Shown here: in pieces, positions 1,727 through 1,948 of the stretch | How positions within the stretch are numbered: position 1 is the first letter of the stretch | Layout: each line of letters opens with the position of its first letter | From: a virus | Lineage: Duplodnaviria > Heunggongvirae > Uroviricota > Caudoviricetes | Strand: one strand, 5' to 3' | DNA length: 13,226 nucleotides | IMG/VR virus record: IMGVR_UViG_2698536480_000007 | Notes under the pieces: generated by a model | Seen by the model: only the letters and a program-made list of their open reading frames with translations | Databases searched by the model: none | What the model was told of the DNA's origin: nothing | Position numbers and translations under genes: made by a program

Positions 1727-1790
1727 GTTCTGAGGGGGAACTCTTCTTTGCTCGGTGATATCGCTCGGTGATATCGCTCCCCTGAAGAAC
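1727..1790 (+). repeat. tRNA leader inverted repeat enclosing a 13-bp tandem duplication
   Basis: GTTCTGAGGGG (1727-1737) pairs with CCCCTGAAGAAC (1779-1790) around two tandem copies of GCTCGGTGATATC (1750-1762 and 1763-1775), each carrying a GATATC palindrome. Confidence 0.5.
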
Positions 1791-1794
1791 CAAT

Positions 1795-1870
1795 GCCGAC
1801 TTAGCTCAGTAGGTAGAGCAACTGACTTGTAATCAGTAGGTCACCAGTTCGATTCCGGTAGTCGGCACCA
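1795..1870 (+). tRNA. tRNA-Thr, anticodon UGU (thrU-like)
   Basis: 76 nt cloverleaf read by hand: acceptor GCCGACT / AGTCGGC, D-stem GCTC / GAGC, anticodon stem ACTGA / TCAGT with loop CTTGTAA (anticodon TGT at 1828-1830), T-loop TTCGATT, discriminator A, encoded CCA. One A-C mismatch in the T-stem. Confidence 0.85.
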
Positions 1871-1873
1871 TAT

Positions 1874-1948
1874 GCGGGTATCGTATAATGGCTATTACCT
1901 CAGCCTTCCAAGCTGATGATGCGGGTTCGATTCCCGCTACCCGCTCCA
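1874..1948 (+). tRNA. tRNA-Gly, anticodon UCC (glyT-like)
   Basis: 75 nt: acceptor GCGGGTA / TACCCGC, anticodon stem TCAGC / GCTGA with loop CTTCCAA (anticodon TCC at 1907-1909), T-stem GCGGG / CCCGC, loop TTCGATT, encoded CCA. Starts 3 nt after the tRNA-Thr. Confidence 0.85.

Follow-up and report, generated by a model that had tools for sequence, protein, structure and literature searches.

Two tRNA genes preceded by a structured and internally repeated leader lie between the Q-like gene and the lysis genes of a lambdoid prophage, and the locus raises the question whether they are a fragment of a host operon or an established phage unit, and what the leader does there. The window, i.e. the whole stretch of 13,226 nt that was analysed, has 100 % identity with a Rac-type lambdoid prophage from E. 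coli strain 135, in which recET, kilR, sieB and trkG are present. A previous reading made without any database search (hereafter the sequence-only reading) had proposed two phage-borne tRNAs with encoded CCA, 3 nt apart in the Q-to-S interval. The prophage context agrees with this proposal, and ARAGORN, run on the whole window, accepted both structures and found exactly two tRNAs, Thr(tgt) and Gly(tcc), separated by the 3-nt spacer TAT (1871–1873). Both belong to the tRNA family, with assignable anticodons and cloverleaves scoring 73.8 bits (Thr) and 65.6 bits (Gly) with the Rfam tRNA model RF00005, for which the threshold is 29 bits.

1795–1870, plus strand: tRNA-Thr(UGU), found by ARAGORN and Rfam, with encoded CCA at 1868–1870.
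1874–1948, plus strand: tRNA-Gly(UCC), found by ARAGORN and Rfam, with encoded CCA at 1946–1948 and the acceptor pair U6-A67.

The resemblance to the host genes thrU and glyT, which the sequence-only reading had proposed together with the host operon order and the absence of tyrU and thrT from the phage, was confirmed by comparison with E. coli K-12. The phage tRNA-Thr equals K-12 thrU at 76/76 positions and the phage tRNA-Gly agrees with glyT at 73/75 positions, the sole differences being C6 to U and G to A at gene position 66 (tRNA position 67). These near-identical mature sequences identify the two tRNAs as copies of host thrU and glyT. The gene order in K-12 is thrU-tyrU-glyT-thrT-tufB, whereas the phage cassette lacks tyrU, thrT, the 116-nt spacer and tufB, has a spacer of 3 nt, and has a promoter, leader and trailer unrelated to their host counterparts. 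Outside the mature tRNAs, the flanks of the phage cassette gave no alignment to the host operon. We could therefore rule out a freshly transduced fragment of the host operon, which should look like an exact copy including flanks: there is no flank homology, tyrU and the host spacer are missing, and the TAT spacer is fixed, being present in 128 of 129 phage copies listed when viral contigs were scanned for the Thr/3-nt/Gly junction. Because of these flanks and this spacer, the cassette is better seen as an established phage module.

The two differences from glyT are paired with each other, C6-G67 having become U6-A67, so the change is indeed compensatory, as the sequence-only reading held. The selection for function that it drew from this had to be narrowed. 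Among the matches listed from viral contigs, the acceptor stems of phage copies include C6-G67, U6-A67 and the U6.G67 intermediate, and because both forms and the intermediate circulate among phage copies, the variation shows that acceptor pairing is maintained, and not a phage-specific adaptation. The 6:67 pair is presumably outside the GlyRS identity set (which we take to be G1-C72, C2-G71, G3-C70, C35, C36 and U73), and the anticodon arm of the phage tRNA-Gly is unaltered relative to host glyT. The cassette is thus an old, established phage module that keeps its acceptor stem paired. The U6-A67 pair could also serve as a natural barcode separating phage-made from host-made tRNA-Gly in tRNA sequencing, which would allow a direct test of prophage tRNA expression in lysogens. 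The U6 form is present in 287 complete E. coli genomes.

The Thr-Gly module is more than a chance arrangement, since over 119 viral contigs and 197 complete E. coli genomes contain it; counts from the viral-contig scans, by the Thr/3-nt/Gly junction as well as by the hairpin pattern described below, are lower bounds. The leader was detected in 197 of 5,426 complete E. coli genomes. A junction-spanning BLAST census of 5,421 complete E. coli genomes returned, after allowing one Thr-Gly place for each genome, about 1,130 additional places; coverage cannot split host from phage copies in this census, because the two host pieces are joined into one match, and its usable results are this excess of places and the class of matches at ≥99 %. 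Across 185,579 species-representative genomes the junction of leader hairpin and tRNA occurred in one, that of Escherichia ruysiae. The unit is present in several different genomic neighbourhoods.

In the window, the tRNAs sit between a DUF1133 gene and the holin gene essD, and the surroundings are as follows.

887–1429, plus strand: Q-like antiterminator gene with DUF1133 (Pfam DUF1133, E = 1e-107).
1430–1540, plus strand: Q-linked conserved segment with an intrinsic terminator (stem 1509–1540; terminator scan).
2725–2940, plus strand: holin gene essD, with which the lysis cassette opens (annotated in the RefSeq record of the identical prophage).

The DUF1133 gene also matches Phage_antitermQ (PF06530) with 27.1 bits, just over the 26-bit cut-off, and in phage 683R6 it is annotated as 'antitermination protein Q'. 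Some 110 nt of conserved sequence, up to and including the 1509–1540 terminator, accompany the DUF1133 Q in four loci, which diverge beyond it. Relatives with a lambda-type Q have an explicit pR'/AACGAT/terminator unit at the analogous position, composed of TTGATT, 17 nt, TAAATT, 6 nt and AACGAT (which we take to be the lambda pause-inducing element), with an intrinsic terminator about 60 nt further on. The segment 1430–1540 is accordingly positioned as a candidate short late-promoter leader plus tR'. The terminator scan also reported terminator-like sites upstream of the holin at 2621–2636 and 2664–2677. The module of hairpin and tRNAs was found downstream of the DUF1133 Q, of the lambda-type PF03589 Q and of other Q genes, i.e. 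with at least three unrelated Q types, and in some relatives TrmB-like and methyltransferase genes separate Q and its terminator from the tRNA promoter. We noticed as well that in some relatives the module lies directly upstream of toxin cargo (LT-IIb, or ArtA with a subtilase-family B subunit), where it may have a part in toxin expression, as has been suggested for stx.

The remaining parts of the unit are a promoter, the leader, a short linker and a long trailer.

1675–1680, plus strand: TTGACG hexamer, 10 nt upstream of the -35 element.
1691–1718, plus strand: sigma-70-type promoter of the tRNA unit, 'pT'-like (promoter scan, 9/12 matches).
1726–1791, plus strand: leader hairpin (fold, covariation, pairing counts).
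1792–1794, plus strand: single-stranded 3-nt linker AAU, preceding the expected RNase P site.
1949–2340, plus strand: conserved structured non-coding trailer (alignment of five trailers including a tRNA-less copy; terminator scan; fold).

The promoter consists of the -35 element TTGCGA (1691–1696), a 16-nt spacer and the -10 element TATCAT (1713–1718). De-duplication of the upstream sequences left 47 unique leaders among the matches listed, belonging to at least 10 diverged families, and all 47 share a common layout: a -35 element (TTGAAA or TTGCGA), 16 nt, a -10 element (TATTAT or TATCAT), 6–8 nt, the hairpin, usually 3 nt, and tRNA-Thr. The 3-nt gap was present at 73 of 79 hairpin-tRNA junctions among the matches listed. 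By direct reading, a hexamer resembling TTGAC also lies 10 nt before the -35 element in at least seven diverged leader families. From this layout, transcription probably starts at about 1724–1726, and the leader would be served by a dedicated promoter, separate from the Q-dependent late promoter.

It could be objected that promoter and hairpin are themselves the Q-dependent pR' with a Q-utilisation or pause site, the tRNAs standing in place of the lambda 6S RNA. The location between Q and S and the terminators downstream of the tRNAs would fit, and a second -10-like hexamer, GAATAT (1700–1705), lies 7 nt upstream of TATCAT in an arrangement superficially like the lambda -10 and pause-element layout. 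However, the GAATAT-type hexamer is not conserved in other families, no -10-like pause element occurs in the first 25 transcribed nucleotides, and the terminator at 1509–1540 precedes the tRNA promoter in the window. Near-identical lambda-type Q genes have their pR'/AACGAT/terminator directly after Q, with the tRNA promoter beyond it, even 1.5–2 kb away, and the same hairpin module accompanies the three or more unrelated Q types. These separate upstream units and the sharing of the module by several Q families largely refute the hairpin as a pR' or qut element, and we consider this explanation extremely improbable.

Downstream of tRNA-Gly, about 390 nt are conserved across families. This trailer contains a weak terminator-like site (2048–2069), a long imperfect hairpin (about 2077–2164) and a strong intrinsic terminator (2311–2330) followed by a T-run, and the fold of 1725–2340 has z = -4.95. 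Its part 2145–2340 matched the sRNA STnc100 (RF02076) below threshold, with 22.1 bits and E = 0.027 for a cut-off of 47 bits, and no relative reached the RF02076 threshold either, so the trailer is not assigned to the STnc100/PasD sRNAs. Such STnc100- and PasD-type sRNAs are reported to be common between Q and holin in lambdoid prophages (Zhu et al. 2026 preprint).

With its own conserved promoter upstream, the strong terminator at 2311–2330 downstream and a place between phage genes, the feature has the sequence characteristics of a moron. It would thus be a non-coding transcription unit in its own right, a tRNA 'moron', set between the Q/late-promoter/terminator region of a lambdoid prophage and its lysis genes. 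In the mechanism that we propose, the sigma-70-type promoter at 1691–1718 would initiate at about 1724–1726 and yield an RNA with, in order, the 66-nt hairpin, 3 nt, tRNA-Thr(UGU), UAU, tRNA-Gly(UCC) and the structured trailer of about 390 nt, and the terminator at 2311–2330 would halt transcripts of the unit ahead of the holin. Because it has a promoter of its own and a terminator before the holin, the unit could be made from the prophage's own promoter, which would presumably be active in lysogens; during lytic growth Q-modified polymerase reading through from upstream may add further transcription. In general tRNA biology, RNase P cleaves at the 5′ ends of tRNAs and exonucleases trim their 3′ tails. 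Here RNase P would cut after AAU and at the 5′ end of tRNA-Gly, freeing the leader and separating the tRNAs, and exonucleases would trim the 3-nt tail. Taken as a whole, an autonomous tRNA unit that serves codon supply, carries a 5′-terminal cis-acting hairpin likely to have a specific partner, and contains a 13-mer repeated by slippage is the best explanation, and one that we hold to be reasonably probable.

The proposed role of the tRNAs is to supplement the single-copy host thrU and glyT in decoding ACA/ACG and GGA/GGG, which the phage over-uses. We compared 27 late genes of this prophage with 17 ordinary host genes and with ribosomal/elongation-factor genes. ACA had a frequency of 16.0 per 1000 codons in the phage late genes, 5.7 in the ordinary host genes and 3.6 in the ribosomal/elongation-factor genes, and for GGA the respective values were 14.1, 5.5 and 2.0, which makes the two codons about 2.5–3 times commoner in phage late genes than in host genes. 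When the 61 codons were ranked by absolute excess of phage over host, ACA was 2nd, GGG 5th, GGA 6th and ACG 8th, and these are exactly the four codons decoded by the two tRNAs. The comparison of ACA, GGA and GGG suggested by the sequence-only reading thus gave a phage excess for all three. The highest phage/host ratios belong to AUA and AGA, and larger cassettes add tRNAs for these codons. The phage is less codon-biased in general, and the codon enrichment is a correlation. The codon data fit codon supply as the likely role of the cassette.

In some virulent phages tRNAs serve to counter host defence that destroys tRNAs, and the main benefit of the present tRNAs might likewise be counter-defence, in that they make up for host tRNAs lost to anticodon nucleases or similar systems. 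The wide distribution of the cassette, with the roughly 1,130 extra copies mentioned above, would be compatible with such a role. We do not favour it, because the anticodon arms are unchanged from those of the host tRNAs: the tRNA-Thr is identical to thrU, the anticodon arm of tRNA-Gly is that of the host, and a nuclease directed at the host tRNAs would attack both phage tRNAs as well. Moreover, the data on codon use match supply well, and no nuclease specific for tRNA-Thr(UGU) or tRNA-Gly(UCC) was identified in this analysis. Counter-defence as the main reason therefore seems to us quite improbable.

Regarding the leader, the sequence-only reading described an imperfect inverted repeat of 1727–1737 with 1779–1790. 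The repeat was recovered with slightly wider arms, 1726–1739 and 1778–1791, which are 14 nt each and 79 % complementary. As RNA, 1712–1794 folds with -31.2 kcal/mol (z = -3.8). The hairpin is composed of the stem P1 (1726–1731/1786–1791), in which GGUUCY pairs with RGAACC; a symmetric 2x2 internal loop with G.A opposite A.G (1732–1733/1784–1785); the stem P2 (1734–1739/1778–1783), in which a G-rich strand pairs with a C-rich strand; and a variable apex (1740–1777), which holds the conserved motif CGG(U/G)(G/C)AU. Pairing was counted in an anchored, ungapped alignment of 36 sequences, where 97.5 % of the cells for P1 and the first two P2 pairs are standard pairs, and controls with slid partners reached at most 74 %. 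The closing pair of P1 is C-G in 18 sequences, U-A in 11 and U.G in six, and the first pair of P2 is G-C in 18, G.U in 11 and A-U in five; the sequences used for covariation are mutually related, and shuffle statistics on them thus overstate significance. The GA dinucleotides are kept in 43/46 and 46/46 unique sequences. One-copy hairpins, with z between -0.6 and -3.3, are not unusually stable. When viral contigs were scanned for the P1/GA pattern, the genuine copies among the matches listed adjoined tRNA-Thr with one exception (loci L009 and L086), where promoter and hairpin are fused straight to the trailer and the tRNAs are absent.

An inverted repeat next to a promoter, with highly conserved half-sites, could also act as DNA, either as an operator for a dimeric repressor or as a recombination site. 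The spacing of the arms varies from about 25 to more than 50 nt across members, no member has complementary bases at the two GA positions, and G.U-type pairs outnumber A.C-type pairs by 34 to 5, an asymmetry that makes sense only for RNA of the plus strand. Because of these three properties we read the hairpin as an RNA on the plus strand and not as a DNA palindrome, and a role as DNA is in our view highly unlikely. On the pairing evidence, the hairpin appears to be a selected RNA structure.

The searches for a known class of RNA were negative. Rfam 15 gave no family over 1726–1791, either at the gathering threshold or at E ≤ 10, and no match for the hairpin in 13 relatives. An intrinsic terminator was rejected, as the hairpin is followed by AAUGCCGAC with no U-run, and the terminator scan does not report it. 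The tandem GA recalls a kink-turn, which is defined by tandem G.A/A.G next to a 3-nt bulge, but the loop here is a symmetric 2x2 loop without a bulge. For the hammerhead, boxB and kink-turn, core positions vary or defining features are missing, and Rfam was negative. No small ORF in the hairpin could be maintained on either strand, as start codons and frames are not kept between families. A processing stem between leader and trailer was also discarded, since in the full-transcript fold the 5′ hairpin stays autonomous, and a pairing or co-evolution of the leader apex with a trailer block sharing TCGGTGAT was dismissed because there is no co-variation across loci.

The sequence-only reading had also drawn attention to two tandem 13-bp copies inside the leader and suggested a test of whether their number varies among relatives.

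1750–1779, plus strand: 13-nt tandem repeat GCTCGGTGATATC, 2.3 copies (TRF, 100 % matches, score 60).

The duplication is real, with full copies of GCTCGGTGATATC at 1750–1762 and 1763–1775, and the copy number does vary, being one in most relatives and two or three in others, so the repeat does not stand as a defining feature of the leader. In the 197 E. coli genomes with the leader, the match is 148 nt long in most (one copy), 161 nt in about 24 (two copies) and 174 nt in strain F5 (three copies). The two-copy form adds a 10-bp apical helix (1755–1764 with 1768–1777), which the duplication creates because GUGAUAUCGC is self-complementary with wobble pairs allowed, and the leader fold changes from -20.4 to -31.2 and -38.7 kcal/mol with one, two and three copies. 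The duplication falls in the apex, otherwise the most variable region of the hairpin. The tandem 13-mer is thus a strain-level polymorphism, and the outer hairpin (P1, GA/GA loop, P2) the conserved part. We suppose that the duplication arose by recent slippage in the variable apex and that the helix which it adds is not needed for function.

As to what the hairpin does, we prefer, with modest confidence, a 5′-terminal stem-loop acting in cis. The distance of 6–8 nt from the -10 element to the stem implies 0–2 unpaired 5′ nucleotides, given the proposed transcription start, and because this distance is constant the stem would lie at the extreme 5′ end. A stem in this position is known to shield RNAs from 5′-end-dependent decay, and the hairpin of the ompA 5′ UTR is reportedly such a 5′-terminal stabiliser. 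In our case the hairpin would most likely shield the triphosphate end and insulate folding and processing of the tRNAs from upstream sequence. A generic 5′ stabiliser needs pairing only, which leaves the invariant GGUUC/GAACC, the GA/GA loop and the apex CGG(U/G)(G/C)AU unexplained. We noticed also that after the RNase P cut the hairpin can no longer protect the tRNAs, a point against a benefit in cis. The invariant P1, GA/GA loop and apex motif point to a specific partner, which the hairpin may have in addition to its role in cis.

This leads to the alternative that the leader hairpin is a functional RNA itself, either as an RNA of about 70 nt with a 5′ triphosphate after RNase P cleavage or while still attached, and acts as a regulator, decoy or sponge with a specific partner. 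The model for such a function is 3'ETS-leuZ, a regulator derived from a tRNA spacer. In its favour, P1 and the GA/GA loop stay invariant across families whose promoter spacers and apex differ, the apex has a conserved motif of its own, the tRNA-less loci (L009a and L086a) have kept the hairpin, tRNA expression as such can do without it, and sRNAs are known to be encoded between Q and holin in lambdoid prophages (Zhu et al. 2026 preprint). On the other hand, neither a partner nor a target complementarity was found, no Rfam family matched, the trailer block sharing TCGGTGAT, as the lone candidate for an intramolecular partner, showed no co-variation, and the tRNA-less copies may be simple deletions. 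We regard a function of this kind as possible but rather unlikely. A related and equally tentative idea is that the hairpin represents an undescribed class of structured phage RNA (P1, tandem G.A loop, P2 and apex motif) read by a specific host or phage factor, controlling tRNA maturation or acting in trans; the arrangement of promoter, hairpin and trailer would then be the original one and the tRNAs would have been inserted later. The 5′-terminal stem-loop acting in cis remains our preferred reading.

The tRNA cassette is of an ordinary and known kind, as tRNA cassettes located between Q and the lysis or toxin genes have been described in lambdoid prophages before. It adds a further widespread example, in which the cassette covers codons with the largest excess of phage over host. 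The conserved leader hairpin is a real element that is absent from Rfam and from the papers searched, and our literature searches on the Thr-Gly module or pT found nothing specific. With its invariant non-canonical motif and no database entry, it is a defined candidate, easy to mutate, for a new RNA element acting in cis or in trans in phages that have been studied well; should it prove to be no more than a generic 5′ stem-loop, there would be nothing unusual in the finding.

Several known systems can be compared with the unit. Like 3'ETS-leuZ, STnc100 and PasD, its leader and trailer would be non-coding by-products of a stable-RNA operon or lie, as sRNAs do, between Q and holin, but there is no sequence match at the Rfam threshold here. 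The lambda pR'-6S RNA-tR' region resembles the unit in having, between Q and lysis genes, a short transcript that is non-coding and is bounded by a terminator which Q-modified polymerase must read through; the difference is that a real pR'-type unit lies upstream of the tRNA module, and the tRNA unit lacks a pause element and occurs with more than one Q type. Stabilisers of the ompA 5′ UTR type would share with the leader a hairpin beginning 0–2 nt from the probable 5′ end, with the distance from -10 to stem at 6–8 nt in all families. They guard mRNAs and have no sequence requirement, whereas our leader precedes tRNA, from which it would be severed, and its stem and GA/GA are invariant.

A close parallel is phage 933W (NC_000924.1), in which the tRNA cluster pT-ileZ-argN-argO follows Q, pR', qut and terminators and precedes the cargo or lysis genes, the annotated order being Q, pR', qut, terminators, 'pT, putative tRNA promoter', ileZ-argN-argO, a terminator and stx. 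The promoter is of the same type (TTGCAG, 16–17 nt, TATTAT), the tRNAs serve host-rare codons, and a terminator follows them. In contrast to our unit, pT lies about 9 nt from the first tRNA without a leader hairpin, the tRNA identities are other ones, and there is no long conserved trailer. Many viral contigs fuse both cassettes into clusters of Ile2-like, Lys or Arg, Thr and Gly tRNAs, and these four-tRNA clusters use the hairpin-less pT; in such units, as in 933W, a leader hairpin is not needed for phage tRNA expression. Since the same type of promoter is annotated as pT in 933W and used by the four-tRNA clusters, the promoter type of the Thr-Gly unit can be considered already known, and the hairpin leader appears to be an add-on seen only where tRNA-Thr comes first.

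Beyond tRNA-Gly, the tRNA unit of the window runs on into a conserved non-coding stretch, and at two of the compared loci this stretch also follows the promoter and leader hairpin directly:

Window 1949-2340: conserved, highly structured non-coding trailer after tRNA-Gly
Window ~2077-2164: long imperfect hairpin in the trailer
Locus L009, 2390-2860: second promoter and hairpin copy joined straight to the trailer, without tRNAs
Locus L086, ~7110-7210: second promoter and hairpin copy joined straight to the trailer, without tRNAs

The part of the trailer at 2145-2340 gave a weak STnc100-like match, and the trailer could hold an sRNA gene of the STnc100/PasD type which uses the promoter and the terminator of the tRNA unit. 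Each of the tRNA-less copies precedes a complete module by ~600 nt, and they represent either a precise deletion of the tRNAs or an ancestral RNA unit composed of the hairpin and the trailer. Towards the window's far end (12985-13183, plus strand), where the structural genes lie, there is a full-length Rfam match to IS009 (RF02111, 220.9 vs 117 bits).

The tRNA scaffold itself is not uniform. Variants of the tRNA-Thr scaffold with the anticodons UCU and UUU were found in phage SerU-LTIIb (L003, 1122-1194) and at two viral loci; the UCU form is annotated as tRNA-Arg in SerU-LTIIb and the UUU form was called Lys. This has the appearance of anticodon switching, by which the phage tRNA would serve other rare codons.

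Two regions 5′ of the leader hairpin carry further features:

Window 1639-1672: A/T-rich 14-nt tandem repeat, 2.4 copies
Within window 1639-1680: TTGACG hexamer, exactly 10 nt 5′ of the −35 of the tRNA unit
Window 1430-1540: conserved segment accompanying the DUF1133 Q gene and ending in an intrinsic terminator (1509-1540)

The position of the hexamer relative to the −35 is kept in at least seven leader families, and the region 1639-1680 could be UP-element-like or bind a factor. The segment 1430-1540 is probably the late-promoter leader and tR′ of the DUF1133 Q family; inspection of this segment for a promoter revealed no convincing −35/−10. In Rfam it matches two Salmonella prophage sRNAs below threshold, STnc370 (30 vs 54 bits) and isrK. 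Matches above threshold to isrK, C4 antisense RNA and its a1/b1 targets were recovered from another locus (L083, 5859-6057, minus strand), close to its own Q region and ~2.4 kb upstream of its own tRNA module. Three relatives with a lambda-type Q (L043, L018 and L129) possess a near-textbook lambda-like pR′ immediately 3′ of that gene (TTGATT, 17 nt, TAAATT, 6 nt, AACGAT, with a terminator ~60 nt further), which is conserved in front of the tRNA module and in front of the TrmB and methyltransferase genes alike.

Regarding the surrounding genes, trkG, which encodes a potassium transporter (window 4764-6221, from L001 17265-18722), is located between the lysis and terminase genes, the same placing as in the K-12 Rac prophage. 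In strain 135, the genes of the iron/manganese transporter sitABCD follow just past the prophage's tail-fibre end. At two loci, plasmid p1054c (L128, 3001-4900) and SerU-LTIIb, toxin cargo directly follows the hairpin-Thr-Gly module: a subtilase-family AB5 B subunit with a pertussis-like ArtA at one, and the LT-IIb prophage at the other. This arrangement parallels phage 933W, in which tRNAs are found upstream of stx.
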